A stretch of 64,000 nt of DNA from Candidatus Woesebacteria bacterium GW2011_GWB1_39_10 (lineage in GTDB: Bacteria; Patescibacteriota; Microgenomatia; UBA8517): the NCBI GenBank assembly GCA_000993205.1, contig LBVU01000004.1, positions 208,030 through 272,029 of the forward strand, given 5' to 3'. The translations under genes and the position numbers were made by a program. Of the stretch, positions 2,681 to 63,901 are shown one piece after another (the stretch's first letter is position 1; each line of letters begins with the position of its first letter). The notes beneath the pieces were generated by a model, which was given only the letters and a program-made list of their open reading frames with translations, was not told the DNA's origin and ran no database searches.

Positions 2681-3921
2681 GTTTTATCAATCCTTTTGGG
2701 GAAATAATAATAAATAAAATAGAGAGCCACCGAAGCAAACACGGTTTGCAAGATACTTCTCGCAAAGTTTATATCTACATTAATTCCTAAATTTGTCCAA
2801 ATTCCCGGTTGTCCATATAAACCCGGGGATATTGGGGAGAAAAGCCAAACCGACAGACCCGGGTCAAAAAAAGTCACTTGTCCAAGCCAAACGACAAACA
2901 ACGTAATGGTTAGCGGCCAATGGGAAAAACGCGACTTAATTAAATCAATCACTAAAAACGGCGTTAACCACAAAAACCATTGGGGATGGGTATGGGTAAA
3001 TATGAAAAAGGTGAGAATTAATATAAAAAATCTATTCCAAAGATCATCAGTCTTTGCTTTATTAAACAGAAATACTATGTAGCAAAAAAGTATAAAAAGA
3101 GGGAAATAAATTATTGCCTCACCTCCCGAAATCGGAAGAGTGGCATACAGACTTTTGGTGGTTTGACCGGCAAGTAGCGCAGTAGCTCTAAATCCGTGTG
3201 AATTTATGAAAGGCAGGATGGTTACAAGATATGTTAGCGCTCCGATTCCAAGGATTTTAATTCTATCCAACCACTTACTCTTCATCAACGCGAGCGGTAC
3301 AAGAAATAAAAACGGGAATATCTTAAAAGAAGCACCCAATCCCAAAAAAAGAGCCGCAATAAAATACTTTTCCCTCTTGACGGCAAAATAAAGCGTAAGA
3401 ATTGCCAAAAAGGTCGGAATGACATCGAATTGTCCCATCATATATGTTGCGTATAAATTAATAGGATTAAACATCCATATAGTAAATGCTAAAAATTTAT
3501 TTTTGGGATCTTTAAAAAATTTGTAAAGTAGAGCCGCTACTCCCAGGTCAAAAGGCAAGTACGGAAGTTTTAGAACCAGTAGCAAAAAATTTAGTTGAAT
3601 ATTACCCAAAAGTGCTGGCAAATTGAATATGAAATCATGAAGTAAGCCTCTATCGAAAGGAAGCGATAATAAATAGCTTACAGGGCCCAAGAAAAAGTAA
3701 ACCAAGGGCGGATAATTAAAGAGATCGGTCGGATAGATTTTCAAAATCGGATCGGAAGATGGCAGGTTTCTTAAATAATCGTAAAAATTTAGAACATTTC
3801 CTTTGGCAATCACCTCGCCGGCGAAGTAGAACGGTTGGACATCCGAATGGTACGTTGAAAATGCCAGAAAAAACCTGATTAAAATTCCAATAACCAGAAC
3901 CGTGATGATTTTCTTAGTCAT
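2677..3921 (-). CDS. polytopic membrane protein, putative GT-C glycosyltransferase (DUF2029/GT87-like)
   Basis: 414 aa, about 11 TM helices. It is a paralog of the partial gene at 1..1040. Start and stop overlap the neighbouring genes (operon). Confidence 0.45.
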   Translation of the reverse strand: MTKKIITVLVIGILIRFFLAFSTYHSDVQPFYFAGEVIAKGNVLNFYDYLRNLPSSDPILKIYPTDLFNYPPLVYFFLGPVSYLLSLPFDRGLLHDFIFNLPALLGNIQLNFLLLVLKLPYLPFDLGVAALLYKFFKDPKNKFLAFTIWMFNPINLYATYMMGQFDVIPTFLAILTLYFAVKREKYFIAALFLGLGASFKIFPFLFLVPLALMKSKWLDRIKILGIGALTYLVTILPFINSHGFRATALLAGQTTKSLYATLPISGGEAIIYFPLFILFCYIVFLFNKAKTDDLWNRFFILILTFFIFTHTHPQWFLWLTPFLVIDLIKSRFSHWPLTITLFVVWLGQVTFFDPGLSVWLFSPISPGLYGQPGIWTNLGINVDINFARSILQTVFASVALYFIYYYFPKRIDKT

Positions 3922-5489: not shown

Positions 5490-7113
5490 ATATTAAAACC
5501 AATATAATAAAACTTAATACGGTAAGATTGTTTCCTAAAATTCTAATAGGTGTATTTTTAAACCTTCCCTCAATACTCGACATTCCTTCCGGTATAGTTA
5601 TACCAATTCTACCCAAAACGTTGTCGTTCGTGTGGACAGATTCTTTACCGTTTACAAACACCGTCCAGCCCGGGAAATCAAAAACAGGTATCTCAATTTT
5701 AGACTCGCTTTCGGCATTTGTTTTAAACGACCATCTATCTGATTTATTAATAAAATCAGATATTTTTACCTTTCCTGAAACAACATATGGCGCAACCGGA
5801 GCAAGCTCTCTGGGCTCAAGTGCGGTTTTGGGAAGATAGTCTAAAAGAGCCCCCTTTTGTTGATCAATAAAGTTTTGACCGGAAAGAAGCTCTTTATCGG
5901 TCAAGTTGAAATAAAAATGCTCGGGCTTAAAATATTGCCAGTTCAGCAATATTGCTAATAACGAAAATGTAATAGCAAAAAGATAACGAGTTTTACCACT
6001 AAATAAAGATATAAAATAACCACCAATTAAACTTGATGTAAAAATTACAACTGACAGAAACCTCCAGGGAAATTGAACAAATGCCAAAATATTTATCCGC
6101 TCCCAAACAAACGAGGATTTATTGTGAGTCATGTACACTCCAAAAGTAAAAAGTAAAAAGTAAAAAGTAAAAAGTGCGATATCTTTTCTTTTCCTACAAA
6201 AAATCACAGCAACAAGAGATAAAACCACAAGCCACCAATGGGGCCAACCAATTTGATAAGAAATTGTATTGGCAGATTGGGGTTGTGACCCAGCATAATT
6301 CCATGACCTGTCAATAAACAGTTGTGAGACCTTTACAAACTGCGCCCTAAAATCCAGCTCATTTCTGGTTAGTGCTTCAGTTTGCACCAAACTCTTTTCT
6401 AAAAATGCAGGCAGAATAAAAAAGGCCGAAATGCCAACGGCCAATCCCAAACTCAAAATTGCGATTTTAAACCCATTCCATTTATCTTTATGTAGCAAAA
6501 ATAAAACCCAAATGACTATTAGTGGTGTAAAAATTAATGTCATAATGTTGTGGGACACTAAAAGTAATGACATCGAAACAGTAGCGAGTGCAAAATATTT
6601 CTTTTCTTTAGTTTTAATCAGTCTTAAATACAAGTAATAAACAAGAGGGATAATTGCAAGGGCAAAACTTTCCCCCACCGCACCTCTTACATATGAATCT
6701 AGCGCCCTATACGGCGCAAATAGATAAAGTATTGCTGAAACAGTTCCGGGAATTTTTCCAAAAAGTTCCTTTCCCAGAAAATACATTCCCAGCCCGCCAA
6801 AAACCAATGGAAGAAAGAATAAAAGTTTTGCTGACCAAATATAACCTAAAAGAAAACTCGCAACCGCACCCAGATAGTAAGACAGAGGTCCATAGAAATT
6901 AAAAAGCGGATAACCATTTCCAAATCCCATATCAGGAACCCACCTACAGGGAATTTGAAAATCAGCAAAACACCTCCTCATCTCGAAAATCCTCATTGCC
7001 TGAAGATTGTCGTGGTGAGAAAAGTAGCCTGGCATGAGTATTGGCCAAACAACAAGGACCGAAAGTGTAAATATCAAAATTAAGGACCAATTATTATGAA
7101 AGAATTTTTTCAT
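5461..7113 (-). CDS. membrane glycosyltransferase-like protein, paralog 2 of tandem triplet; contains (AAAAAGT)n tract
   Basis: Motif PGYFSHHDNLQAMRIFEMRRCF..GFGNGYPLFNFYGPLSYYLG. The architecture is the same as paralog 1. Confidence 0.5.
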   Translation of the reverse strand: MKKFFHNNWSLILIFTLSVLVVWPILMPGYFSHHDNLQAMRIFEMRRCFADFQIPCRWVPDMGFGNGYPLFNFYGPLSYYLGAVASFLLGYIWSAKLLFFLPLVFGGLGMYFLGKELFGKIPGTVSAILYLFAPYRALDSYVRGAVGESFALAIIPLVYYLYLRLIKTKEKKYFALATVSMSLLLVSHNIMTLIFTPLIVIWVLFLLHKDKWNGFKIAILSLGLAVGISAFFILPAFLEKSLVQTEALTRNELDFRAQFVKVSQLFIDRSWNYAGSQPQSANTISYQIGWPHWWLVVLSLVAVIFCRKRKDIALFTFYFLLFTFGVYMTHNKSSFVWERINILAFVQFPWRFLSVVIFTSSLIGGYFISLFSGKTRYLFAITFSLLAILLNWQYFKPEHFYFNLTDKELLSGQNFIDQQKGALLDYLPKTALEPRELAPVAPYVVSGKVKISDFINKSDRWSFKTNAESESKIEIPVFDFPGWTVFVNGKESVHTNDNVLGRIGITIPEGMSSIEGRFKNTPIRILGNNLTVLSFIILVLIYAKGRKIFS

Positions 7114-32308: not shown

Positions 32309-32455
32309 AGGTTAAATTTTGAAAATATTTCATATATCATACCCATTTTTGTTCTACCTTTGTAACCCTTCAAGATTGTAAAATTCTTCGCGGGTTGGTG
32401 CATCATCCATATTTTTAGTATACTCTTCACATCTTCCAGTTCAATAAGAATTATT

Positions 32456-33204
32456 ACCTTGCAAGGTTTCTCCTTACAAGGTAATATAAATTATGCCTGC
32501 AAGAAACTTAATAAGATTTGAGGGTGATGATTGTTACTATCACGTTTATAACCGTGGAGTTGAAAAGCGAATTATCTTTGAAGATGAACAGGACTACAAA
32601 GTCTTTTTAAATTATCTAAAAGAATATTTAAGCCCACCACCCGACCTCTCTAAAATAACAAAAACTTTTACCTTGCAAGGTTTCTCCTTTCAAGGTGTAC
32701 CACACCAGCCTAAAAACTATTTCGAGAAAGTTGAGCTTTTGGCATATTGCCTTATGCCTAATCATTTTCATCTATTTCTACACCAAAAGAATGAACATGA
32801 CATTGAAAAATTTATGCGATCGCTTTTAACCAGATATTCTATGTATTTTAACAAAAAATACGACCGTGTGGGTTCACTTTTTCAGGGACCATATAAATCT
32901 GCCATTGTGAGAGATGAATCATACTTTCTTCATTTAAGCAGATACATTCATTTGAATCCTTCTGAATATACAAAAGATTTAGTATCTGCATATTCTTCGT
33001 ATTCAGAATATTTGGGACTCAGAAAAACACCTTGGATACATCCAGAGAAAATATTATTTTTCTTTAAACAAGCAAGTAAAGATTTTATTCAAAAGGAAAA
33101 TAGTTACAAAAATTTTGTGAAGAATTATAAAATTGATAGCACTTCAATTCTGGAAAACCTTACGCTTGAATAACTAACCTTGAAGGGTCTCTCCTTACAA
33201 GGTA
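32456..33204 (+). mobile_element. RayT/IS200-like Y1 transposase gene bounded by direct copies of a 28-bp REP-like palindromic element
   Basis: Copies are ACCTTGCAAGGTTTCTCCTTACAAGGTA at 32456-32483 and ACCTTGAAGGGTCTCTCCTTACAAGGTA at 33177-33204, plus a third copy inside the ORF at 32670-32698. CCTTGCAAGG is itself palindromic. Confidence 0.65.
32493..33173 (+). CDS. IS200-like / REP-associated tyrosine transposase (Y1 HUH, TnpA_REP/RayT family)
   Basis: HUH motif LMPNHFHLFL, catalytic Tyr region RYIHLNPSEY and N-terminal YHVYNRG. The fold is shared with the second copy at 47792..48433. Confidence 0.75.
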   Translation: MPARNLIRFEGDDCYYHVYNRGVEKRIIFEDEQDYKVFLNYLKEYLSPPPDLSKITKTFTLQGFSFQGVPHQPKNYFEKVELLAYCLMPNHFHLFLHQKNEHDIEKFMRSLLTRYSMYFNKKYDRVGSLFQGPYKSAIVRDESYFLHLSRYIHLNPSEYTKDLVSAYSSYSEYLGLRKTPWIHPEKILFFFKQASKDFIQKENSYKNFVKNYKIDSTSILENLTLE

Positions 33205-33207
33205 GCC

Positions 33208-45499: not shown

Positions 45500-46156
45500 T
45501 TAGTCCTTAGTTACTATTTTACCATTCACAATATTTATTATTCTCTTTTTAAATTTTTTAATTATATCCATATTGTGTGTTGCCATTATTACAGTTTTAC
45601 CTTCTTCGTTAATTTTTTCAAACAGTTTAACTACTCCTTCCGAAGTGTCCCAATCTAGATTCCCTGTGGGTTCGTCTGCTAAAAGTAGTTTTGGGTTTAC
45701 AACCAAGGCACGGGCAAGTGAAACCCTTTGAAGTTCGCCTCCGGAAAGCTGGGAGGGGAAGAGATTTATTTGTTTGGTAAGACCGACGAGTTTAAGAACA
45801 TGGTTAATTCTCTCTTTCCATTCATTCTCGGGAAGCCCGATAACCGCCAAGGCCACCTCTACATTTTCGCCCACTGTTCGTTCCGGTAAAACTTTAAAGT
45901 CCTGAAATACGGTACCTATTTTTTGCCTAAAATACGGAACATCTTTTGTCTTTAAATTTTTGATGTCTAAACCGTCAACGATAATGGTACCGCCATCGGG
46001 CGCAAGCTCCCCTAAAATTAATTTCAAAATAGTGCTTTTCCCGGCCCCTGAAGGGCCTGTTATAAAAACAAATTCACCTTTTTTGATCTCAAATGAGACG
46101 TCGGTTAAGGCGCTAACTGATCCAAACTTTTTTGTGACATTTTTGAAGTTGATCAC
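45500..46156 (-). CDS. ftsE: cell-division ABC ATPase FtsE
   Basis: Walker A GPSGAGKST, signature LSGGELQRVSLARAL and Walker B LLLADEPTGNLD. Confidence 0.85.
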   Translation of the reverse strand: MINFKNVTKKFGSVSALTDVSFEIKKGEFVFITGPSGAGKSTILKLILGELAPDGGTIIVDGLDIKNLKTKDVPYFRQKIGTVFQDFKVLPERTVGENVEVALAVIGLPENEWKERINHVLKLVGLTKQINLFPSQLSGGELQRVSLARALVVNPKLLLADEPTGNLDWDTSEGVVKLFEKINEEGKTVIMATHNMDIIKKFKKRIINIVNGKIVTKD

Positions 46157-46158
46157 GT

Positions 46159-46587
46159 TTATTGAACCTGAATTTTAGAAATATCCATTAACCATCCGGC
46201 CTTTTTGGACGCCAATGTCTCCCCCCAAATGCGGACTTTCTTCCCAACAAAGCTTTCCAAATCGATTACGCTGGAAGTTAAATAAACAGTCTGACTCACT
46301 CCACCATCACGGTCAAGATGGTGAGTTCCTTCGTTTCCAATCCCGCCAGATACCAATGTTCCGACTGCATCAGTGTATTGAATTTTAGGATCCAATCTCC
46401 CTGCTTCCGTATCGGTCACCTTTGACCCCGGAGCGGCAACTGAAGAAGAATTATTATTCATAACTTTAAAGAAAAGAAGCCAGGCGGCCGCGACTCCAAC
46501 AACAACTGTGGCAAGAGCCCCGGCAATGAGTGGCCACGATTTTGATATTTTGGGAGTTTCCACAGCTACTTGATTTTGATTTTCCAT
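46159..46587 (-). CDS. membrane-anchored hypothetical protein
   Basis: N-terminal TM (LIAGALATVVVGVAAAWLLFF) plus a soluble domain. Confidence 0.35.
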   Translation of the reverse strand: MENQNQVAVETPKISKSWPLIAGALATVVVGVAAAWLLFFKVMNNNSSSVAAPGSKVTDTEAGRLDPKIQYTDAVGTLVSGGIGNEGTHHLDRDGGVSQTVYLTSSVIDLESFVGKKVRIWGETLASKKAGWLMDISKIQVQ

Positions 46588-46655
46588 AACTTAATATACC
46601 ACTTAAAAAGCTAATAGCGCAAATCGAAAAAGTAAAAGCTTTTCGTTTTTCCTTT

Positions 46656-47732
46656 TTAGCTCTTCGTTAATTTTAATTCTGCGTCTATAAATTCATCTAT
46701 CTCCCCGTCAAGAACCGCATCCGTGTTCCCCGTTTCCTCTTGAGTGCGAAGATCTTTTACCATTTTATAGGGATGTAATACGTACGAGCGTATTTGGGTT
46801 CCCCAGGAGGCGGGCCGGTAGTCCCCTTTAATTTCCTTTTTAACTCCCTTTTCAATCTCCTGCTGTCTAATCCATAGTTTTCCACGAAGAAGATCCAGGG
46901 CGATTTTTCTATTTTGCTCCTGAAAACGTTCGGTTGAAGCCGTAATCACAATTCCGGTCGGAATGTGGGTAAGCCGTACCGCTGTAGCCACTTTGTTAAC
47001 ATTTTGACCTCCATGCCCGCCGGCATGAATAAACTGCCAATCGAGATCGTTATCTTTAATTTCCATATCATGAAGGTCGGTATCGGTTAGTTCAGGCATG
47101 ACTTCGACAAGCGCAAACGAGGTTTGTCTGAGCTTGTCCGCATTAAAAGGAGATTGGCGCACCAACCTGTGAGTTCCCGCCTCTCTTTTTAAGTAGCCGT
47201 AGGCATAATGCCCTGTAACTTTGAAAGTAACGCTCTTAATTCCGGCTTCTTCTCCCGAAGTATAATCAAGGTTCTCGGTTGGCCACCCACGGCGTTCACA
47301 AAAACGCAGGTACATGCGATATAGCATATTGCTCCAATCCATGGCTTCTGTGCCTCCTTGGCCGGCATGGATTGAAACTAGGGCATTCTTAGCGTCATAT
47401 TCTCCGGAAAGATAGGACATGAGCTCGAGCCTGGCAAGAGTTTTTTCCGCCTTTATTACTTCAGATTCATCCTGAACCAGTCCATCATCCTGAACTAGTT
47501 TCAGGATCTCCAAAGTTTCTGCGAGACTTTCAATTTCCTCAACTTCTTTTTTAATGTCCGAAAGCTCCTGGGTAACCGCCCTGGCTTGGTTTGGATCATC
47601 CCAAAGTGTAGGCTCGGACGCCTTGGCCTCAAGTTCAACTATTTTTTGCTTTTTTTCCGGAAGACCAACAACCTCGATAAGCTTTTCCAGACGTACTATT
47701 AGCTCATCAATTTTTTGTTTAAATTCCTGCAT
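46656..47732 (-). CDS. prfB: peptide chain release factor 2 (no programmed frameshift)
   Basis: SPF tripeptide (RF2-specific) and GGQ motif GGHGGQNVNK. The frame is uninterrupted from ATG. Confidence 0.85.
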   Translation of the reverse strand: MQEFKQKIDELIVRLEKLIEVVGLPEKKQKIVELEAKASEPTLWDDPNQARAVTQELSDIKKEVEEIESLAETLEILKLVQDDGLVQDESEVIKAEKTLARLELMSYLSGEYDAKNALVSIHAGQGGTEAMDWSNMLYRMYLRFCERRGWPTENLDYTSGEEAGIKSVTFKVTGHYAYGYLKREAGTHRLVRQSPFNADKLRQTSFALVEVMPELTDTDLHDMEIKDNDLDWQFIHAGGHGGQNVNKVATAVRLTHIPTGIVITASTERFQEQNRKIALDLLRGKLWIRQQEIEKGVKKEIKGDYRPASWGTQIRSYVLHPYKMVKDLRTQEETGNTDAVLDGEIDEFIDAELKLTKS

Positions 47733-47750
47733 GAAGTAAATTTTACCACA

Positions 47751-47773
47751 GTTCCGTTCCGGGATCGGAATAG
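47751..47773. repeat. REP-like palindrome family 2, inverted copy (GTTCCGTTCCGGGATCGGAATAG)
   Basis: Its reverse complement ATTCCGATCCCGGAACGGAA matches TTCCGATCCCGGATCGGAA at 48477-48495 and 61000-61018. Confidence 0.6.
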
Positions 47774-47791
47774 CTAGGCGAAACGGGTATT

Positions 47792-48433
47792 TTAGTCCAA
47801 AATCAACTGTTTGATTCGTGACAGGTCTCGTTGATATCCAACTCTATCGAGAACAAATTTTTGATAACTTTGTTTACCTAAAATATCTAATATAAGTGTT
47901 GGGTCAATTAAATTCGATTTTTCTTTGTGTAAATATTGAATGTATGATGAATATTTGTAATCTTCGGGTTTGTTGACAATATAATCAGTGACTGGATTCA
48001 AATGAATATACCTTGAAAGATGTAACAATTGCCTTTCATCAGAAATCCTAACAGCTTTAAAGTTACCAGAAAATAAGGCACCATTGACGTCGTACTTTTT
48101 ATTAAAATAGTGGGCATAGCTTCCACACAATCTCTGAATAAAATTTTTAATTCCATCCTCTGCTTCTTGTCTCAAGGTAAAATGATAGTGATTAGGCATC
48201 AAACAATAATTAAGCATTGAGACCAATTTATCATCTAACTGAAAAACATGTTTGTCTTTTTGTCTTCGATAAAAGGAAAACTTCACTTTGGGGAATTGTT
48301 GAAGATAATAGAGTGAAGCCTCCGTGAAAATTTGAAAGTCTTTATCGGATTTGAAAATTTGAATTTTGTGGGTTGATCTATTAAAAACATGGTAAATCTC
48401 ACCGGTTGCCAAAATAGTTTTTCTACGACTCAT
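47792..48433 (-). CDS. IS200-like / REP-associated tyrosine transposase (Y1 HUH, RayT-like), second family
   Basis: YHVFNRS, HUH motif LMPNHYHFTL and Tyr region SRYIHLNPV. It is flanked by inverted REP-like palindromes. Confidence 0.7.
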   Translation of the reverse strand: MSRRKTILATGEIYHVFNRSTHKIQIFKSDKDFQIFTEASLYYLQQFPKVKFSFYRRQKDKHVFQLDDKLVSMLNYCLMPNHYHFTLRQEAEDGIKNFIQRLCGSYAHYFNKKYDVNGALFSGNFKAVRISDERQLLHLSRYIHLNPVTDYIVNKPEDYKYSSYIQYLHKEKSNLIDPTLILDILGKQSYQKFVLDRVGYQRDLSRIKQLILD

Positions 48434-48460
48434 TGTATGTTAATAATATCACTGTTTAGA

Positions 48461-48500
48461 ACTAATAATACTGGTTCGTGGACACGTTCCGATCCCGGAT
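48461..48500. repeat. REP-like palindrome family 2 copy (CTGGTTCGTGGACACGTTCCGATCCCGGATCGGAATTTTG)
   Basis: Imperfect palindrome TTCCGATCC-C-GGATCGGAA. It matches the copy at 60985-61019 over 35 bp with 6 mismatches. Confidence 0.7.
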
Positions 48501-48690
48501 CGGAATTTTGCCAAAAAAAGCCCCGGTCAGGTTATTGAAACCCGATCAGGGCGAAGTGGGACCGGTACTATACCATAGAATCAATTAAGCTTAATAGTAC
48601 AACTACTATAAGATTGTGAAAACAATTTATGTATGGTAAAATCCCTTTCGATAGTTGGCACATTTTTCAAATCAAAAAAAGGAGTTCGTT

Positions 48691-49044
48691 ATGACTAAAG
48701 ATGTTTCTTTCTATGATCGTTTGAAGCACTATCCCTGGAAACTTTTTGGACAGTTAAACCCTCTGTTCAAAGTGATTGTCATTGTATTGGCACTCGGAGC
48801 CTGGGTTCCTGACCCCTTGGACATTGTTGGTATTTCGTTCTGGGGTATTCTGGCCGGTATATTGTTTCAGAAGATGGTTGCAACCTGGATCGTAGTGATC
48901 CTGAGCGTCCTTTTCTGGATCATAACCCAGATGATCGAATCGCTCTTGGTGATTTTAGTCACCGTCTATCTGATCCCTGCAGGTGTAGGCTTGATCTGTA
49001 TGTTCTTTGAAAAGGACCCAAACCCGATCATATTTAACAGTTAA
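48691..49044 (+). CDS. small 3-4 TM membrane protein (ORF track starts at 48655; ATG at 48691 has an AAGGAG SD)
   Basis: SD aaaaaggagttcgttATG. GC content is about 45%, intermediate between background and the downstream GC-rich cassette. Confidence 0.4.
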   Translation: MTKDVSFYDRLKHYPWKLFGQLNPLFKVIVIVLALGAWVPDPLDIVGISFWGILAGILFQKMVATWIVVILSVLFWIITQMIESLLVILVTVYLIPAGVGLICMFFEKDPNPIIFNS

Positions 49045-49058
49045 AAAAACAACATAGC

Positions 49059-49118
49059 AATCCCCGTGAGTCGGAACAACGCCATTTTGGCACCGAAACT
49101 TGCGGGGATTTTTTTTGG
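49059..49118 (+). terminator. putative rho-independent terminator (stem AATCCCCG..CGGGGATT followed by T8)
   Basis: Read directly downstream of gene 48691..49044. Confidence 0.4.
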
Positions 49119-49262
49119 AAAAAATAGTCAATCGAAATGAGGATAATTGAGGAAATTTGAATGAAGGTATTGCAGGGGCCGGAAGTCAAAGTGAGAGGTT
49201 ATCTCAATTTGATCTTCCGACCCCAATTTTAGAACTAAACTTCAAGAATATTAGGCCAGAGC

Positions 49263-49964
49263 CTAGAAAAACAGGCGAGCGCCAACGAGCAAAAGCACTG
49301 CAATCAGCACGTATACAGGCATCTTTGCCTTGTTCAAAGCGCCGAGAGCGTCCTTCTGATCAACCGCAGTCAGCAGTCCCAATGTAAAGAGCAGGCCACC
49401 GAGGCTGGCTGTAGCGATAATCAAAGCCGAATTAACGGTAAAGGGCGAAGGACTCGCAGCCGCCAAGCCTAAGACGATGAAAAGCCAACCGCCATTTTGC
49501 TGATCAAGGCGATCCTTGAAATCAGCCGACGCAAAAGTGAGAGCCGAAAAGGTCGCCAACATGGTGGCCATGGCAACAGGTACAACAAGGGTAACAAGCG
49601 CGTGAGTGTTGTAAACCTGAGTGCCCAAGGAACCCGCGCGGTAGGCGAGGAACGCCAAAACGGAATACACAACACCGAAAACTGGTTGGAATAACCGATC
49701 GGTGTAATAGTCGTCAACCAAAATGACGGTTCCGAAGGCGACAAAGGTAAAACCAATACCCACGAGCATACGTGCCGCAGTGTAGTCCAGGAACGAGACA
49801 AGCACGCCCAAGAGCACAAGCCCGAAGCCGATGACTAAAGGATCGCGTCCGTCACGATTGGATGACAGAAGGGCATTTTTGTTGTTCTTGCCCAGGAACG
49901 AAAACGCCGCGGCCAGGCCGAACAGAATAACCAAAGCAGGGTAGAAAACGAAATTTAAAATGTT
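49263..49964 (-). CDS. integral membrane protein (6-7 TM), unknown function; foreign cassette
   Basis: Start MNILNFVFYPALVILFGL is preceded by GGAGAGACGAG. The longer ORF-track start overlaps the upstream gene. Confidence 0.4.
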   Translation of the reverse strand, partial: NILNFVFYPALVILFGLAAAFSFLGKNNKNALLSSNRDGRDPLVIGFGLVLLGVLVSFLDYTAARMLVGIGFTFVAFGTVILVDDYYTDRLFQPVFGVVYSVLAFLAYRAGSLGTQVYNTHALVTLVVPVAMATMLATFSALTFASADFKDRLDQQNGGWLFIVLGLAAASPSPFTVNSALIIATASLGGLLFTLGLLTAVDQKDALGALNKAKMPVYVLIAVLLLVGARLFF

Positions 49965-49980
49965 CATCTCGTCTCTCCAA

Positions 49981-50901
49981 TTAAGGTGCCGCTGTCGGGG
50001 TGGCCGGGAAGAGTTCCTGGTCCTGACCAGATTCGATGATCTGCTGAGTATCAGCGCCAACAATACTGCGGGTCATGTACTCAAGGGCCGCATAGCGGGT
50101 CATACGACATTCGCCGTTGCCGCCGTTGGCCGCAGGATTCCAGGTGCTCTCGTAAAGACGGGCAAGGGCTGATTCATGGCCAGTGAACTTCAGTTTGGAC
50201 GAGTAAGAGATGTTCTGCATAAACTCGCCACTGATGTAATATTGACACAGGTTCTTATCACCATGGCTTACCCACAGGTTCGCTGTCGGGAGCCAGCTCC
50301 AATCGGAAACACCGACGCCATTGTCTGCCAATTTCTGGTAGACCAGCGTGGTATCGCCGTAGGTCTGCATGAGGTCGTTCATAAAATCGACCTCGGGGAA
50401 GGAACTAGTGTAGTTCATGTAGTCCGTAGCGGCCTCAAACGCCATGAGATTGGCATTCTGTACAGCGGCGCGGTTAGCGACGATGTAATCGGCAAGCTGG
50501 CGGAAAATCTGTGTGCATTCGGTCGTGGCTTGTTCGCCGGAGACGCTGTTTGTGACAAGCGCTGAGAAGATGGCATCGCCATCCATATTACCGGTAACTG
50601 CATTGCCGATCGTTGACTCAGTCGAAGCGACGCTTGCAGAGCATGCATTGGCCGCACCGAACAAATCCTTACCGCCGAGACGGAAGGTGTTCAACGAAAG
50701 TTCATATTTCCGCCACAGAACAGTAATGCTGGTCTCACGATCAACTCCGCCCTTGTAGTACGTCCGCGCCTGAGCCAAAATCGCAACAGGATCGAGTTTT
50801 GGCAAAGCCGGAACCGTGTCCTGAGGAGCCTTAGTCCCGCACGCAGACAAAACGAACATTGCCAGCAAAAACAGGGAAACGATTCTTTTAGTGACGTTCA
50901 T
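49981..50901 (-). CDS. predicted lipoprotein, unknown function; foreign cassette
   Basis: Signal peptide with lipobox LSAC-G, and SD AAAGGAGAAAAACCAATG. Confidence 0.45.
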   Translation of the reverse strand: MNVTKRIVSLFLLAMFVLSACGTKAPQDTVPALPKLDPVAILAQARTYYKGGVDRETSITVLWRKYELSLNTFRLGGKDLFGAANACSASVASTESTIGNAVTGNMDGDAIFSALVTNSVSGEQATTECTQIFRQLADYIVANRAAVQNANLMAFEAATDYMNYTSSFPEVDFMNDLMQTYGDTTLVYQKLADNGVGVSDWSWLPTANLWVSHGDKNLCQYYISGEFMQNISYSSKLKFTGHESALARLYESTWNPAANGGNGECRMTRYAALEYMTRSIVGADTQQIIESGQDQELFPATPTAAP

Positions 50902-50928
50902 TGGTTTTTCTCCTTTGTTGAAATGTAT

Positions 50929-52896
50929 CTACATCTGACTCCGCGCCGAACCGGCGAGGAACAGACAGATTATGGCTAAGACGAGGACAACCCACGCACC
51001 CCAAACGGGTGTAGAAGCAATTGCCCCGGCCGTAACCGTGTTCATGATCAGGAACCGACCGTCCTCGTTGACCTCGATGGTCGTCTTGAGGTAATCGGTG
51101 TTGCAAGTCGAGTACCGTACAAAGCCAACATGCTCAGCCTTGGCTTGATTACAAGCAGGGTCCGATGGGTCTGGAGGGGTGTAGTTGGGATCTGTCTCGT
51201 AGAGAAGCCCCACAACACTGTCGGCCTGAGTCAGGTCAGAAAACTGGTATTGGAATTTGTCCGCCTGCGAAGCGACATAACTTGCCGAGAATGAACCAAA
51301 GAGGTTTTCCTTGGTCAAGGACAAATTATCGCCCGCACGAACACTTGCCGTTACGTGACTGATGAGTACATCATTGCCGGTAGGCATGCCTGTTTCGAGA
51401 CCGCGGCCGGTAATCCGTGTTCCGTCATCGCTGATGGAGGTCACAGAAATCACGAGGTTTTTGGGCATTGAAAACAAGCTCCACACGCCCGAGTCACGGA
51501 GGTACGCCTTTACTGCAGAAACCGTGTAGGGCATTCCGCCGAGACGCTGAACGATACTATCACAAACAAGGAACCAGCGGAGTGAACCCTGTTTTGTAGG
51601 ACCGAAGTCCCCTTGGACCACCATGGCATATTCTGCATAACCCTGAAGTTGTTCCGGGCTTAAACAGCTGCCAATGACAAAGATCGGATTGAAACCGATT
51701 GCAAGGTCACCGTCCGTGGCCACCAGTTGAGTGGGCAAAGTTGCAGGCTTGCCGTATGCATCATTGATTGTAAAGTCAACGCCATTGGGGCCGGGTAAGT
51801 TCACGATGCCTCTGAGGTTGTTGTAGTCACCGTCATAAACATCGTAAAGTGGGCTGTCAGCCGCAAAACCCCAGTTGAAATAGGGTCCCACGAACGTTGC
51901 ATCCACAACCAAGCCGCCATTTTCTTTGGCAAGCTTCACCACCATATACGCATCGGGGATATGCTCATTGTATGAGCCGCGAGGTTCCTCGCAGGTCGTC
52001 CCGAAAAAGCCTGTTTCACAATAGAGATGATTCGGAGCATCTTGTGGGGCGCGCCAATCTGTATTTGCATACACAACAGGCTTACGCTTATCATTGATAC
52101 TCCCGTATTCATCCTTCGAACAAGGTTCAAACGCGCCATTATCTGCCAAACAGCTCTGATGATAGATCTGCTCGGATAAATATTTGGCACGAGTGTCCGG
52201 AATGATGTAATACCGCACAACGTTAGTAAACCAGGGGGTATACTCGTCATCGTGCTCCTCATGACAACTTTCAGTTGTATTACCATCTGAGTCTGTCGAA
52301 GTCGTACACACTTGATGTGAGTTGATCTCGCGATGGGTATAGTAGTTCGTGTTGCTTGAACAGAAGTCATGGTGATTCACGGTCCGTTCACAGGGTTGCG
52401 ATTCCATTCCGATCTGTGAAACAACTGCGTGGATGTATTGATAGTTGGTGGCTTGAGCACGCTGTGCCAAGTCAACTCCTTGAGTGACCGCTTTATCCGC
52501 CAGATCATGACCAACTTGGTCAACTTTTTCGGAGATTTGGAAATTGTTTATTGCGGCACCAAATGAGCCAAGCAGGATTGCCACCACAACGGCGACAGAC
52601 CACCATCCACATCCCTCGACTCCCAAAAAAATACCCGCACTGATCACGAACAAAACGAGGGCAAAGAACCAAAGCCAGGCACGCGTGTGCATACGACTCG
52701 TAACGTTGGTGTCAGCAATTTGCTGAGCCTCGTTATAGAGCTCTTGCACAGTGTAGTGCACCTGACCACCAGTGTTAGTGCCTGCAACCGGGGATGCCGT
52801 TGGTGAAGGTGTGGTTGAGCCGCAGGCCAGAACAACAAGCGCTAAAACACCGATTGCCAGCAAAACCACAACCAAATTCTTCTTTCGATTCTTCAT
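50929..52896 (-). CDS. 655-aa cysteine-rich predicted lipoprotein/membrane protein with two TM helices near the N-terminus and one at the C-terminus, unknown function; foreign cassette
   Basis: Lipobox VVLAC-G and SD GAAAGGAGATTTTGATATG. Many paired Cys residues lie in the predicted extracytoplasmic region. Confidence 0.45.
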   Translation of the reverse strand: MKNRKKNLVVVLLAIGVLALVVLACGSTTPSPTASPVAGTNTGGQVHYTVQELYNEAQQIADTNVTSRMHTRAWLWFFALVLFVISAGIFLGVEGCGWWSVAVVVAILLGSFGAAINNFQISEKVDQVGHDLADKAVTQGVDLAQRAQATNYQYIHAVVSQIGMESQPCERTVNHHDFCSSNTNYYTHREINSHQVCTTSTDSDGNTTESCHEEHDDEYTPWFTNVVRYYIIPDTRAKYLSEQIYHQSCLADNGAFEPCSKDEYGSINDKRKPVVYANTDWRAPQDAPNHLYCETGFFGTTCEEPRGSYNEHIPDAYMVVKLAKENGGLVVDATFVGPYFNWGFAADSPLYDVYDGDYNNLRGIVNLPGPNGVDFTINDAYGKPATLPTQLVATDGDLAIGFNPIFVIGSCLSPEQLQGYAEYAMVVQGDFGPTKQGSLRWFLVCDSIVQRLGGMPYTVSAVKAYLRDSGVWSLFSMPKNLVISVTSISDDGTRITGRGLETGMPTGNDVLISHVTASVRAGDNLSLTKENLFGSFSASYVASQADKFQYQFSDLTQADSVVGLLYETDPNYTPPDPSDPACNQAKAEHVGFVRYSTCNTDYLKTTIEVNEDGRFLIMNTVTAGAIASTPVWGAWVVLVLAIICLFLAGSARSQM

Positions 52897-53223
52897 ATCA
52901 AAATCTCCTTTCAGACTGAATGGTTGATGCCGATTAAAAGAGGTCGTCTCTATGTTTAGATTTAGAGATGACGTCTTGCATCGGCACCAATTTTAAAGAG
53001 AAAAAAGTTTTACTTTTTTAATATTCTTGAAGATGTTAATGTCCACTTTTTACACTGAAATTCCAGTCGCAAAAAAAATGACTGGCTCCCAGTCAAAAGA
53101 CGAAAGGCAAGTGTACCAGAAAAATAGAAAAAGTCAAGAGCTATGGGATGAAACTTTAATTTAAAATTAATAATTTAGAATTAAGAATTACGGAGAGTAA
53201 AACGAGGCTAAAAATCAGAATTT

Positions 53224-53472
53224 TCAACTGTAGTGGTTATTGATATCAACAATTTCTATAAAGTCTGGGGTAAGAAACACGAAAACAGCCCTATATTTCT
53301 TGTCTACTCGAAATGAATAAATTCTAAGGTTTTTAGGCTCCAGAACTTCGGTATTCAGTGAAGGATGTCTCGGATTTGCAACAAAAACCTGACTTTGACG
53401 AGCGAATTTCCTAGTTAAGTTTCTTTTTTTCAAAAATGAAGTCAAATCTTGCCTTAATGGTTTAATCCGCAT
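53224..53472 (-). CDS. type II toxin, RelE/ParE superfamily (mRNA interferase-like)
   Basis: 82 aa. It overlaps the upstream small RHH gene by 11 nt. The C-terminal YRAVFVFLTPDFIEIVDINNH is a RelE-like beta-sheet region. Confidence 0.5.
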   Translation of the reverse strand: MRIKPLRQDLTSFLKKRNLTRKFARQSQVFVANPRHPSLNTEVLEPKNLRIYSFRVDKKYRAVFVFLTPDFIEIVDINNHYS

Positions 53473-53725
53473 ACAAAGAAGACTTGGAAAGTCCTTTTGT
53501 TACACTTTCGATAAATTCCTGAGTATATTTGCCACTTTGGGCCAATTGAAGCTTAACCTCTGCAAGTGGAGTTTTATCAAAAACCTCAAATTTAGCTTCA
53601 TCTGACATATATTTTCTTAACACGTCACGCACAAACTCAGATCTGGTGGCAAACCCGAGTTTCTTGGTTTCGCGGTCTACAACCTGTGCAACTTGATCTG
53701 GTAACGAAATCGTAAATGTTGTCAT
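53462..53725 (-). CDS. ribbon-helix-helix (CopG/ParD-like) antitoxin; alternative longer start at 53746
   Basis: N-terminal beta-strand MTTFTISLPDQVAQVVD, then helices TRSEFVRDVLRKY. Confidence 0.5.
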   Translation of the reverse strand: MTTFTISLPDQVAQVVDRETKKLGFATRSEFVRDVLRKYMSDEAKFEVFDKTPLAEVKLQLAQSGKYTQEFIESVTKGLSKSSLYAD

Positions 53726-53727
53726 AT

Positions 53728-53755
53728 TGTTAATATTTAACAACATTTGTTAATT
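53728..53755. promoter_or_regulatory. TA operator candidate: near-palindrome TTGTTAATATTTAACAA plus repeated TTGTTAAT
   Basis: Located immediately upstream of, and overlapping, the antitoxin start. Confidence 0.4.
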
Positions 53756-53769
53756 TTTGTCAATACTTC

Positions 53770-54240
53770 TTATGGTTGGCAGATGAGGCTTTTGACCTTT
53801 TTAAGGTCTGCGGGGCTTAGAGTCTGAATATTTTCCAAGGCACCCTGAAAAGTGGAGCTGTCTTTAGCCAAAGAAGAAGGAATGGAACTTTTAACCCCCA
53901 AAACCTGAATAAGCTGGGTCCTCCCCGCATCCAAGGCTATCTGCAGGGGTTTTGGGGCGTTTTTCCAGCCTAAAAACTCGGTTAGGGCGGTTTTTCCCCC
54001 GACAATCAAAAATCCTTCTAAAAGTAATGCCAGAAGGAAGCCAAAAAATATTCCAAAGAGAGCACCTTTAAGACCCCAATCTACATAATGACGCCTGAAC
54101 TGAGCCATGCTCAAAATCAAAAGGAAAATGAGAAAAACTATAGCTGCCACTTCCCAGTAGGCCAAAGGGATCGAGAATTTTCCAAGGTTTAAATCAAAAC
54201 CGCGGCTTAAAAATTTAGAGGTTTGGGCAAACTGGTTCAT
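53770..54240 (-). CDS. membrane protein (3 TM), unknown
   Basis: 156 aa open frame with predicted TM helices. Confidence 0.35.
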   Translation of the reverse strand: MNQFAQTSKFLSRGFDLNLGKFSIPLAYWEVAAIVFLIFLLILSMAQFRRHYVDWGLKGALFGIFFGFLLALLLEGFLIVGGKTALTEFLGWKNAPKPLQIALDAGRTQLIQVLGVKSSIPSSLAKDSSTFQGALENIQTLSPADLKKVKSLICQP

Positions 54241-54327
54241 GGCAAAATAATATTAGCATAAAAGAAAAAACGGGAGCAACATTTTTTTCACACGGCTTTT
54301 CACAAGCCATGAGTTTGCGTGAAAATA

Positions 54328-54999
54328 TTAGATGGAGGTTGAGGTAGGAGAGGTGCTGGGGCTGGCACTTGGGGATACGCTTGGTTTGGGAGTGGGAGTG
54401 GCGGATGGCTTTGCTGTTGCCCCTTTCCTTAGACCTGTAACAATCACTGCGTCAAATGTCGGAGAGGTTGCGGTTTTAACAGTAACATTCTGATAAATAG
54501 AATTAAGTTTTAGAGTTAATTCGCTGACAACCGCTGAATCAAGTGAGCTTCCGAAAGTAACTACCGTTGCCGAAGCCGTTTGGTCTGGGGCATTCCCGAC
54601 TTTAATGTCTGTATATCCCAAATCCTTGAGCGCTGTTTGTAGGTAAGCTGCTTCTCCTGTTATACCTGTGCCATTTTGGATCTGAATAGAAACCTGAGTT
54701 TTGTCAATAGGCTTGGCAGTAGCTGTTGGAGAGGGTGTAGTCACATTTACATTCTCTTCTCCCAAGATTTGATTTTCGATCGGAGTTGGTTCGACTAAGG
54801 CCTCACCTTTGCTGGTCGCGCTTTTGTAAATGACAAAGCCCAGTATAGCTACAAGCACTAAGATGCCGATAACCAAAAGGGTTTTAGCCCCGCTACTTTT
54901 TTGAGGTTGACCAACAGTTGGAAAAGAAATGTTCGGTGAAGAATTCTCCTGGGGTGAAGCTTGAACTCCGCTATTTTCTGTATTTTGATTCCCTTCCAT
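54328..54999 (-). CDS. membrane-anchored LytR_C-domain protein (ORF track extends to 55293 in a frame overlapping tgt; real start is MEGNQ at 54999)
   Basis: Pro/Gln-rich N-terminus, a TM helix, then VSIQIQNGTGITGEAAYLQTALKDLGYTDIKVGNAPDQTASATVV, which matches the LytR/CpsA/Psr C-terminal domain pattern. Confidence 0.5.
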   Translation of the reverse strand: MEGNQNTENSGVQASPQENSSPNISFPTVGQPQKSSGAKTLLVIGILVLVAILGFVIYKSATSKGEALVEPTPIENQILGEENVNVTTPSPTATAKPIDKTQVSIQIQNGTGITGEAAYLQTALKDLGYTDIKVGNAPDQTASATVVTFGSSLDSAVVSELTLKLNSIYQNVTVKTATSPTFDAVIVTGLRKGATAKPSATPTPKPSVSPSASPSTSPTSTSI

Positions 55000-55042
55000 A
55001 GTTTTTGCGACTTCTGTCGTAAGTGCGCAAGTATAAACGCAT

Positions 55043-56155
55043 CTATCGCGAGATGTCAAGCGATAAATGCGACCGCAGTTTTTCCATAAGAATGGAGTAA
55101 AAGCGAAGGTTGTGGATTGTAGCAAGGCGCCCAGCAGTAAAATCTCCGATTTTAAATAAATGAGCAAGGTACGCCCTTGAATAGCGTGTACAAAGCAGGC
55201 AATCACATGCAAGACTAACGGGAGAACTGTCTTTATAATAAACTTCCTTGCTTGGAGTAAAAAACGAATAAATTTTTGGAGCAAAAACATCAATTCCTTT
55301 TAGGGAATTTGCGTTATAAACGTAAAGCCTTCCATGCCTGCCATCGCGCGTAGGTAAAACACAATCAAAAATATTAAAACCTAATTTAAAACATTCGACG
55401 ATTTCGTCTGGTTTTCCAACTCCGAGTCCGTATAGAAAATAATCCGGCGGAACATTGTTTGCAATGGATTTTGCGGATTCGTAATCAAAGTTTCCATCTT
55501 CCGTAATCGGCCAGCCGCCGTACCCCAAACCGTCAAATCCTATTTTGACCAGCTCTTTAGTGCAATATTCCCTTAAGTCTTGAAATTTGCCCCCTTGTAC
55601 TACCCCTAATAAATATGGCTGTTTGCTTTTTGCAATATGCTTTATGCGGCAAATTTTGTCAAATTCTTTTTTACTCCGGCGCGCCCAGTCGATTGTTCTT
55701 TCAACTGAGATTTTGGCCTCATCATAATTTGACTTTGGGTCGGTAAAGTCATCTAAAACGACTACCATATCTGTGTTAAGGGTCATTTGAAATTCGATTG
55801 ATTTTTCGGGGGTAAGAATCTTCTTTTTGTTTTGTGACGGGTAAAACACGGCTCCTTCATTTGTAATCTTGCCTTTAAGTTGCCCGGATTTAATAACAGA
55901 CATTACTTGAAACCCGCCGGAGTCGGAAATTACCCCTCCTTTATAGTCCATAAGCTCCCTGATCCCACCAAACTTTTTCAGGACATCTTTTCCAAGTCCC
56001 TGCCACAAATGAAAAGTGTTGACTAAAATTCCCGGAGTTTTGGTACTCTCAAGATCTGTTGTATCAATTGACCTCACAACGGCACGGGTGGCATCAGGAA
56101 AAAATACAGGAAGGGGAATGTCCCCGTTTTTCGATTTAAAGTATTTTCTTGCCAC
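55043..56155 (-). CDS. tgt: queuine tRNA-ribosyltransferase (GTG start)
   Basis: PVFFPDATRAVV, SDSGGFQVMS and the zinc site CDCLLC..H. Confidence 0.85.
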   Translation of the reverse strand: MARKYFKSKNGDIPLPVFFPDATRAVVRSIDTTDLESTKTPGILVNTFHLWQGLGKDVLKKFGGIRELMDYKGGVISDSGGFQVMSVIKSGQLKGKITNEGAVFYPSQNKKKILTPEKSIEFQMTLNTDMVVVLDDFTDPKSNYDEAKISVERTIDWARRSKKEFDKICRIKHIAKSKQPYLLGVVQGGKFQDLREYCTKELVKIGFDGLGYGGWPITEDGNFDYESAKSIANNVPPDYFLYGLGVGKPDEIVECFKLGFNIFDCVLPTRDGRHGRLYVYNANSLKGIDVFAPKIYSFFTPSKEVYYKDSSPVSLACDCLLCTRYSRAYLAHLFKIGDFTAGRLATIHNLRFYSILMEKLRSHLSLDISR

Positions 56156-60984: not shown

Positions 60985-61019
60985 TGGTTCGTAGCCTCAT
61001 TCCGATCCCGGATCGGAAA
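60985..61019. repeat. REP-like palindrome family 2, solitary copy (CTGGTTCGTAGCCTCATTCCGATCCCGGATCGGAA)
   Basis: Matches the copy at 48461-48495. It abuts the stop codon of gene 61020..61991. Confidence 0.7.
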
Positions 61020-62143: not shown

Positions 62144-62923
62144 TTAGGGAGTGAAGAAGCTGCTCTGGCTTCCGCCTGCAATCTTGGTCTGTGAGGTCTT
62201 GATGACGCTCGAGCTCCAGGTGCCGAATGCGCGGCGGCGGCCCGCGGGGGTCTTATCGAACTGCTTGGGATCGGGGAATCCCATCGAATTGGCCAAAACC
62301 GTTTCGTCAACGTCATTCCCCAATGCAATCAGGGTGAATGTTGCGTTTTCGCGTTTTCGACGAATTTCCTCGACAACGGTCTTGACATCCTGCGCTGACG
62401 CATGGCTTGAGTTATCATCCCCGTCCGTAAGCACGGCCACGTTCAGCTTGACACGCATGCCCTGCTGCTTGAGCGTATTCTCGTAATCCACCAAACCAGT
62501 GAGACCGTCAAGAATTGCGTCATAAAGCGCAGTACCACCGTCAGGGTGATAGTCTGTCAACTTTTCCACCAGATCCATGGTCAGGTAACTATGGATAAGG
62601 CGTGAGCGTGTATTGAAAGCCCAAAGGGTCAGAAGGATCTGGTCTGCTTGCTTGCTGCCACGAATGGCGTCAATGTTGTCGTCGTACTCGCGTACAACTT
62701 GGGCTTGGTCGTCATCCATCGACCCACTTTCGTCAAGAATGACAAGGGCCAAGGTGACTTCATCAGCAACATTCAGATCGTTGACATCGGGACCGGCTGC
62801 CCCTGCGACATTTTTTGCACTCAGGTTCTTGACCAGAATGTTTTGAGCTGCCTGGGAAAGGCCGGAGGCGACGATTGACTGCGAGGCCTGAGCCTTACTT
62901 GATTTGACAGTGTTTTTAGACAT
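62144..62923 (-). CDS. von Willebrand factor type A (vWA) domain protein (start MSKNTV at 62923)
   Basis: MIDAS motif LVILDESGSMDDD with downstream T and D residues (TLWAF, LTDGDDN). Confidence 0.55.
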   Translation of the reverse strand: MSKNTVKSSKAQASQSIVASGLSQAAQNILVKNLSAKNVAGAAGPDVNDLNVADEVTLALVILDESGSMDDDQAQVVREYDDNIDAIRGSKQADQILLTLWAFNTRSRLIHSYLTMDLVEKLTDYHPDGGTALYDAILDGLTGLVDYENTLKQQGMRVKLNVAVLTDGDDNSSHASAQDVKTVVEEIRRKRENATFTLIALGNDVDETVLANSMGFPDPKQFDKTPAGRRRAFGTWSSSVIKTSQTKIAGGSQSSFFTP

Positions 62924-62977: not shown

Positions 62978-63901
62978 CTACTTAAGCGGGTCGGTGCTCT
63001 TGACCACAACTACGCCCTTTTTGACCATTTCGTCGAGCGAAGCTTTGGCAAGCATCGCAAAATCGATGGTGGGGTGCGCGACCGGTGAGGTGCAGTCGAT
63101 CATGAAGTGAAGCTTTTTGATGACATCCGGTTGATTACCGAAATGTTTTACTTCCTGCTTCATTGTTTCGTCCACACAGTGGCTCCAAGCCTCGCCGCCT
63201 TCATTGATCTCATCATAACCGGCCACCATGTCCAGCGCATCGACATCAATAAGAGAGGCTGGGTCTTTGGGGTCGGGAATTTCTGCGCCGAAGATGCCAT
63301 AGTGCTCAACACGTGGGTCAGTACCCTTTGTAATAAACCAGGGTTTTGTCTGACGTGCAGCGGCATGCCAAGCGATCGCTTCAGCAAGCGCCGGGACGAG
63401 CTTTTGGCCATCCGTGCCAACCAGGCAGTGGTACGGCCAAATCATCAGGTTCTTTTTGGCATTCTTTTCCAAAAGATCCACATAACGAACAGACCACGCG
63501 GGATCAACCAAAGCCTGCCATTTACCTGCCCTGATATCTGCCAAGGTAATCGGCGTAAAAGGATCAGGGTGCTTGTGGTTTTCCAGATTCATCCACCATT
63601 CTGGGTGGAAAATCATACGTGAAATGTGGGTGTCGAGACTGGCTGCAATCGTTGTTATCTTGTCCGCATTGCGGTAGATAAACTCAATAATGCGCTGAAT
63701 GTCACCGATTGCGCCCGGAACCGGAAGAGCCCCATCAGGGTGAACAAAGTCACGCTGCGGATCTACCAAAAGTAGAAGCCGACGAAACTTGTCGTCAGTG
63801 GCCGGTTTGAGACCAACTTTTTTACCGAGAGCCTCATGCTTCTTCAGATCCGGGTCATAGTTCTGACCCAAAACCGAAGGGTTTAAAAGTGATGTTGCCA
63901 T
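62978..63901 (-). CDS. isochorismatase-like cysteine hydrolase family protein (long form, 307 aa)
   Basis: LLLLVDPQRDF (catalytic Asp region) and GEAWSHCVDETM (nucleophile Cys) match the isochorismatase/nicotinamidase fold. Confidence 0.5.
   Translation of the reverse strand: MATSLLNPSVLGQNYDPDLKKHEALGKKVGLKPATDDKFRRLLLLVDPQRDFVHPDGALPVPGAIGDIQRIIEFIYRNADKITTIAASLDTHISRMIFHPEWWMNLENHKHPDPFTPITLADIRAGKWQALVDPAWSVRYVDLLEKNAKKNLMIWPYHCLVGTDGQKLVPALAEAIAWHAAARQTKPWFITKGTDPRVEHYGIFGAEIPDPKDPASLIDVDALDMVAGYDEINEGGEAWSHCVDETMKQEVKHFGNQPDVIKKLHFMIDCTSPVAHPTIDFAMLAKASLDEMVKKGVVVVKSTDPLK

Follow-up and report, generated by a model that had tools for sequence, protein, structure and literature searches.

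When a GC-rich block of genes with Shine-Dalgarno (SD) motifs lies between a transposase gene and a toxin-antitoxin (TA) pair, has the genome recently acquired it, or has the block long belonged to the lineage? The question is raised by a 64,000-nt stretch of DNA (the window) from Candidatus Woesebacteria bacterium GW2011_GWB1_39_10, a groundwater bacterium of the candidate phyla radiation (CPR) whose genome was assembled from a metagenome (assembly GCA_000993205.1, contig LBVU01000004.1, positions 208,030 to 272,029). Three adjacent genes, which we call A, B and C, and a small membrane gene on the opposite strand make up the block, referred to here as the module (Table 1). An earlier note, made from the DNA sequence, had interpreted it as a recent acquisition from a high-GC, SD-using donor. 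We find that the module is an old envelope operon conserved in its lineage and not an acquisition of this genome.

A lineage-conserved envelope operon

The module occupies the same site in related genomes. The shared order is TGT, LytR_C, a 156-aa membrane protein, A-B-C with the opposite-strand small gene, prfB, FtsE, FtsX and an M23/PcsB-like peptidase; it is found in L006 (GCA_040960375.1), L007, L008 (GCA_034680565.1), L054 and L055, partly in L058, and in its upstream half in L025 (L numbers are our designations for loci). The housekeeping proteins of the syntenic genomes are 60-85% identical to those of the window, and synteny at this level of identity implies that the arrangement is older than a deep split. 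The earlier note had proposed this comparison and had named conserved synteny among relatives as the outcome that would speak against its interpretation; this is the outcome obtained, and a recent acquisition does not fit a block that stands at one site in all seven loci. The closest relative of the locus is L025 (CAZBTH010000006.1), whose A protein is 91% identical to that of the window; its contig bears the title ‘uncultured Gammaproteobacteria’, probably because the public record was wrongly binned or labelled.

Among the traits by which a genomic island can be recognized, deviant composition and codon usage are present (GC and GC3, the GC content of third codon positions), and absence from the same site in relatives is not. 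No tRNA gene was found in the window, the only repeats found are the repetitive extragenic palindromic (REP) sequences around the transposase gene (RayT) itself, and phage and plasmid collections gave no match to the block. The regulatory DNA does not look foreign either: the non-coding DNA of the module, including its leader, is AT-rich (29-38% GC), and the promoter is of the host's extended -10 type.

Table 1. Features of the module and its surroundings (positions in the window)
Feature	Position	Strand	Characteristics
Gene A, 655 aa	50929..52896	-	lipobox LAC25; AAGGAG 7 nt before ATG
Gene B, 306 aa	49981..50901	-	lipoprotein SAC21; SD is AAGGAG
Gene C, 234 aa	49263..49967	-	polytopic, ~7 hydrophobic segments; GGAG SD within the end of B
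Small membrane gene, 117 aa	48691..49044	+	divergent; AAGGAG at 48679-48684
Bidirectional terminator hairpin	~49060-49117		after the small membrane gene
Module promoter	53110..53137	-	TTGACT, 16-nt spacer with TG, TACACT; conserved CCCATAG before it
Leader hairpin 1	53071..53095	-	GC stem then U8, terminator-like; starts 15 nt past the -10
Leader box ACWTTAACAAYTTCAAGAATATT	~53017..53045	-	23-nt box, nearly invariant; once in the window
Leader hairpin 2	52924..52990	-	~25 bp; ends 27 nt before the ATG of A
TA pair (variable insert 1)	53224-53746	-	bicistronic; slot flanked by the 156-aa gene and the module promoter
Ribbon-helix-helix (RHH) antitoxin	53462-53746	-	PF01402, 27.8 bits (cut-off 20.5)
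RelE/YoeB-like toxin, 82 aa	53224-53472	-	matches below curated cut-offs
RayT-like insert (variable insert 2)	47752..48505	-	Y1 transposase 47792-48433 between two REP palindromes
Second GC3-rich SD operon	62144-62923, 62978-63901, continuing beyond 64000		L009 7370-11758

The compositional contrast that raised the question is sharp. In 300-nt windows, GC steps to 0.49-0.54 over ~49,250-52,950 from 0.31-0.40 on either side; 1-kb windows over the block give 0.49, 0.53, 0.52 and 0.47, and the mean of the 64-kb window is 0.394. The rise described earlier is thus real, although it amounts to ~52% against 39.4% GC and not to 57% against 35%. Most of it is carried by third codon positions, and GC3 is raised more than GC1 or GC2. 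A, B, C and the small gene have GC3 values of 0.54, 0.62, 0.60 and 0.55, respectively, compared to 0.27-0.43 for other genes. AGA, AGG, GGA, GGG, ATA, TTA, CTA and GTA are avoided in the module, and CGT, CGC, GGC, ATC, TTC, TAC, AAC and AAG are favoured; because of these two sets, the shift is codon-specific rather than a plain rise in GC. A GGAG-type SD precedes only A, B, C and the 117-aa gene among the 25 called genes of a 22-kb stretch, which confirms the contrast with native genes drawn in the earlier note.

Relatives share these traits. The codon shifts have the same direction in 10 of 10 lineages, and in every relative the module genes carry SD motifs and exceed their neighbours in GC3 by 0.1-0.35. 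Across six loci, the excess over the locus median is +0.205 (n=19, Mann-Whitney p=5e-12), and the GC3 scatter of 100 non-SD genes in six loci is 0.046. When the window is compared with its relatives, identity at fourfold-degenerate sites amounts to 0.28-0.39 (0.48 for A against L007), and chance alone would give 0.24-0.32. Since these sites are nearly saturated, the composition bias has been maintained and is not the un-ameliorated leftover of a transfer. At every locus examined GC3 is lowest in A, with B and C both higher, in either order.

The products have extracytoplasmic features. A consists of a lipobox (...VVLAC25G), two transmembrane (TM) helices, a large Cys-rich and beta-rich ectodomain and a C-terminal TM helix, and contains 15 Cys. 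B (lipobox ...VLSAC21G) combines a small alpha/beta part with a long helical hairpin or coiled coil, and four of its Cys are invariant. Lipoboxes were called from motif reading and alignment rather than by a dedicated predictor, and the lipobox Cys of A and of B is aligned across full-length homologues. The description of the cargo as two lipoproteins and a 7-TM protein therefore stands, as does the suggestion that the small membrane gene belongs with them: it is kept in place and orientation, with an SD and raised GC3, in five relatives (L007, L008, L054, L055 and L058). Syntenic counterparts of C are 34-47% identical in most pairs.

The A family comprises 16 clusters in a word search, and 131 representatives were recovered at E<=1e-3 among 1.84 billion proteins. 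Sequence and profile searches of Pfam, NCBIfam, PHROG, PADLOC and PDB returned nothing meaningful for the module proteins, in keeping with the earlier view of an undescribed envelope module; a PHROG ‘minor head protein’ match to C (E=2e-4) covers a hydrophobic stretch and was discounted. A has no PDB sequence or profile match and nothing significant by Foldseek. A candidate TPM-like alpha/beta segment in its ectodomain makes up less than one fifth of the protein; neither A nor 39 relatives matched the TPM family PF04536 in Pfam, and the long-strand Cys-rich beta domain of A is likewise without a match. In some relatives, extra small SD-bearing genes, several of them GC3-rich, lie beside the module (L054 7163-7489, 12237-13205 and 14414-14830; L055 5705-6679; L007 14367-14783), from which it follows that the SD-type block expands and contracts at its edges.

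Promoter, leader and translation starts

The operon is preceded by a near-consensus promoter of the extended -10 type also found before neighbouring genes, and this promoter is kept at all nine loci that bear the leader as well as in L052. The leader that follows contains two hairpins separated by the 23-nt box. In hairpin 1 the structure is kept and the sequences differ (L006, L007, L008, L054, L055 and L052), and the box is conserved more strongly than the module proteins themselves. Hairpin 2 ends 24-27 nt ahead of the ATG in seven of the nine loci. Over its alignment, 90.6% of cells are paired compared to 29-49% in slid controls, seven pairs have changed on both sides, and the leader of the window folds with z=-4.4.

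A covariance model of the leader finds exactly one sense-strand copy per locus and no further copies in the window or the 14 loci, and Rfam 15 gave no match at E<=0.1 in 46000-56000. The leader is conserved at all nine loci, including L056, where the genomic context is different. By these alignments and searches it appears to be a new motif and a candidate regulatory RNA. We considered whether the box sequesters the SD and rejected this, as RNAduplex energies were no better than those of shuffled sequences in the nine loci. The idea that the box is a general motif was also set aside: an exact-pattern scan of the genome contigs gave mostly chance AT-rich matches, with L025 the only real one and the match in L029 lying inside a kinase gene. 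The leader may instead act as an attenuator, stabilize the mRNA, contain an RNase III site or bind a regulator.

The start sites of the neighbouring genes are organized differently from those of the module. In many of them the start codon follows 5-9 nt after the end of an extended -10 element (TGnTAnAAT), for example at 60934 (secA), 56155 (tgt), 47732 (prfB) and 46587. Over six loci, TANNNT ends 4-10 nt before the start in 46 of 130 called genes, compared to 18 in a control window; an SD-like motif is present in 32 of the 130, and no gene has both. A -10 element so close to the start in many genes implies leaderless mRNAs, and the neighbours would lack an SD because most of them look leaderless. 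The genome thus appears to initiate most genes in a leaderless or SD-free manner, whereas the module appears leadered and SD-dependent. We found no literature on SD or leaderless use in CPR bacteria or on this accession. The release factor gene in the same neighbourhood (46656-47732) has the SPF motif of the RF2 type and is a single uninterrupted reading frame, without the programmed +1 frameshift that is common in prfB.

The module is not the only GC3-rich block with SD motifs. The genes at 62144-62923 and 62978-63901 share both traits and belong to a second operon, which encodes a PP2C phosphatase, a 622-aa kinase, a 307-aa protein and a 259-aa VWA protein. A full SD lies ahead of three of these genes and only AGGA ahead of the PP2C gene, and GC3 climbs along the operon (0.39, 0.43, 0.55 and 0.60). 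Two of the products were checked, the 307-aa and VWA proteins; both lack hydrophobic segments and are therefore cytoplasmic-looking. The 5'-to-3' rise in GC3 resembles the pattern of the module, in which A is lowest.

Allele exchange and competing explanations

At a conserved site, the module proteins diverge strongly. The sister genomes L007 and L008 share 90% identity in prfB and 83% in FtsX, compared to 45% in A, 32% in B, 45% in C and 48% in the small gene; between the window and L007, A and B are 80% identical and prfB 74%. It follows from these identities that the locus evolves much faster than its flanks and that the A-B alleles do not follow the genome tree. This conflict between the A-B tree and the flanks suggests that alleles have probably been exchanged between lineages. 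What survives of the island idea is thus a weaker form, in which the module is laterally exchangeable over long times.

More distant copies of A-B occur in unrelated contexts in L052, L056 and L057. The copy in L057 (5569-9113) is bordered by tRNA-Arg/tRNA-Ser(cga) on one side and, on the other, by a second tRNA-Ser-like gene, whose anticodon ACT is odd. The A and B genes of this copy have GC3 values of 0.58 and 0.67 compared to 0.23-0.28 in the flanks, a much more AT-rich context, and the copy is without the conserved box. In that lineage the module may have been inserted as a true island.

To account for these features together, we propose that A-B-C and the divergent small membrane gene run under an expression regime unlike that of the rest of the genome, an account that we hold to be probable, if not strongly so. 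The near-consensus promoter, a structured 5' untranslated region (UTR) of ~200 nt and an SD for each cistron would provide strong or specially controlled synthesis; the codon usage of the module is what raises GC3. The product would be a membrane-anchored, disulfide-bonded surface complex of the TPM-like lipoprotein A, the coiled-coil lipoprotein B and the polytopic protein C. Hypervariability and A-B exchange would fit a cell-surface interface on which contact with phage or host exerts diversifying selection. In the atp operon of L008, codon usage shifts in the same NNC direction, which fits translational selection, although it is far from proof.

Several observations weigh against this proposal. 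The atp shift is only weak, and atpE has an SD without raised GC3. Simple high expression sits awkwardly with a terminator-like hairpin downstream of the promoter. The second operon, with its cytoplasmic-looking proteins, also shows that SD motifs and raised GC3 are not specific to envelope genes. A broader account, which we regard as possible and put forward tentatively, is that some CPR bacteria run two initiation regimes side by side, a leaderless or SD-free bulk and a few SD-led, GC3-rich operons. A-B-C would then be the flagship of the latter, a hypervariable surface complex with undescribed folds and exchanged alleles, and its leader, likewise undescribed so far, would either be an attenuator or bind a protein or RNA.

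The recent foreign island of the earlier note, donated by a high-GC, SD-using organism and mobilized or stabilized by RayT and the TA pair, has in its favour the sharp compositional edges, the restriction of SD motifs to the module among the 25 called genes, and the transposase and TA pair that adjoin it. We consider it very improbable, because the same site and the same traits recur in seven loci at 60-85% housekeeping identity, synonymous sites are nearly saturated, and the syntenic loci either lack RayT and the TA pair or have them at other positions. RayTs act on REP sequences, and transport of cargo is not a known activity of the family. The jump in composition could, taken alone, also reflect an assembly chimera in which a fragment from a GC-richer organism was joined into a CPR contig, an idea that is close to untenable: the exact A protein was called on 14 contigs, and the five places shown (from ENA, NCBI, JGI and Logan, and at least three samples) have one gene order on both sides. 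One of the five, L002, on the 553.7-kb contig LCFI01000001.1 of GCA_000998925.1, carries window positions 40929-62896 in reverse, identical over 21,968 nt, and the arrangement recurs in divergent relatives. A metagenome scan with the A profile added one fragment only.

Two other explanations locate the unusual composition outside expression. The module could be an anciently mobile cassette that travels among CPR bacteria together with promoter, leader and SDs of its own; the composition would then come from a shared, GC-richer gene pool or donor and from repeated re-import, and in the present lineage the cassette would have become fixed at one locus, with alleles swapped by homologous recombination. 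The incongruence of the A-B phylogeny with the flanks argues for this, as do the A-B(-C) copies in unrelated contexts in L052, L056 and L057, the position of the L057 copy among tRNA genes with the largest GC3 offset, and the movement of the leader with the operon into L056. However, the leader and promoter are AT-rich and host-like, the GC3 of the module partly tracks that of the host (it is highest in L056, with 50% GC), and C and the small gene do not share the allele pattern of A-B. Neither an integrase nor direct repeats turned up, nor did matches to phages or plasmids, and no GC-rich donor lineage appeared among the 131 family representatives, whose genomes themselves were not inspected. 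On balance we find this cassette rather doubtful as the source of the composition; it is compatible with the special expression regime proposed above, and the two are not mutually exclusive. GC-biased gene conversion at a recombination hot spot would raise GC3 whatever the expression or origin of the genes, and both the evidence of allele exchange at the locus and the larger rise in GC3 than in GC1 or GC2 speak for it. It is nonetheless improbable, given that the GC-rich codons AGG and GGG are depleted, the T-ending CGT is enriched, and the adjacent leader, which would lie within the same conversion tracts, has ~33% GC. Reported effects of this process in bacteria are much smaller than the +0.2 offset in GC3.

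Flanking inserts and known counterparts

The earlier note had read the succession of transposase, cargo and TA pair as the layout of an island, and this layout proves to be coincidental. Of the two intergenic slots next to the module, RayT occupies one and the TA pair the other, as small, unrelated inserts that vary independently among relatives. RayT is unrelated to the GC-rich genes beside it. Its identification is upheld by Pfam Y1_Tnp (E=6.8e-9, 36.3 bits with a cut-off of 23), whereas the NCBIfam model for REP tyrosine transposases (NF047646) scores 50.6 bits, under its equivalog cut-off of 80. The 19-nt palindrome TTCCGNTCCNGGANCGGAA stands at 47752-47770 and 48487-48505 beside RayT and a third time at 61000-61018, two genes downstream of the second operon; three copies in 64 kb compare with 0.04 expected by chance. 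These are not the inverted pair described before, as each REP is palindromic in itself and both have the same orientation. Like known RayT/REP systems, the insert combines a Y1_Tnp domain, visible HYH (HUH-like) and YIHLNP tyrosine motifs, and a bracketing palindrome that recurs elsewhere; it differs from them in the sub-threshold family score and in having 3 REPs in 64 kb. The same slot holds a 63%-identical Y1_Tnp gene in L055 and none in L006, L007, L008, L054 or L058. Elsewhere in the window, at 32493-33173 (+), is another Y1_Tnp/RayT-like gene, which shares 39% identity with the first and is flanked by palindromes of another type, CCTTGCAAGG / CCTTACAAGG-containing repeats at ~32455-32490 and 33175-33205.

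In the other slot, the RHH antitoxin exceeds its Pfam threshold, so that this half of the RelE/RHH module named earlier holds, but the toxin resembles RelE, HigB and YoeB only below cut-offs (HigB-like 20.4 with a cut-off of 27; YoeB TIGR02116 17.9 with 51.8; PDB YoeB E=0.15) and is best called putative. As in type II RelE/YoeB-RHH systems, both genes are small, the antitoxin gene comes first and the two overlap, here by 11 nt; the sub-threshold toxin scores set the pair apart from those systems. L006, L007, L008 and L054 lack the TA pair at this position. L025 has a different RHH/RelE-like pair there (3155-3728), and in L058 orthologues of the two window genes, with 60% and 71% identity, are found beyond the other end of the module (5623-6124). 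The stretch from the 156-aa gene to the promoter looks like a hot spot for TA insertion.

Recombinational switching is a property of the S-layer cassette of C. difficile. This cassette, the slpA locus, and the function of SlpA as a phage receptor have been described (PMC5270738, PMC8809339, PMC10100898). As in the slpA cassette, conserved flanks enclose an envelope block that diverges far faster than housekeeping genes and whose alleles depart from the genome tree. In contrast, the module proteins have no sequence or fold relation to S-layer proteins and are lipid- or TM-anchored rather than cell-wall-binding. A further point of comparison is provided by TPM-domain proteins (PF04536), which include TLP18.3/Psb32/MOLO-1, BA41 and mycobacterial AscF/AscG (10.1101/2024.10.28.620569, PMC13456599). 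Unlike these, A has no PF04536 match, and the TPM-like part is confined to the small fraction of the protein given above. Long structured 5' UTRs are present on abundant envelope mRNAs, such as E. coli ompA and the S-layer genes of Lactobacillus and Bacillus. By analogy, the strong promoter, the ~200-nt UTR, the stable hairpins near the 5' end and before a strong SD, and the biased codons of the module may place it among them, although hairpin 1 has a terminator-like U-tract and the single-stranded 23-nt box has no counterpart in those UTRs.

CPR bacteria are uncultured episymbionts whose cell-surface machinery is largely obscure, and a hypervariable envelope operon that is conserved across a clade is a candidate for their interface with host or phage. 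Its leader offers a testable, apparently new regulatory RNA motif. For annotation, the locus calls for caution: an anomaly in GC and SD usage beside a transposase and a TA pair mimicked a fresh island, and comparison reveals a long-maintained, gene-specific codon regime. Finally, the split between leaderless-type and SD-type starts (46 and 32 of 130 genes, none with both) suggests that expression classes may be read from CPR genomes.

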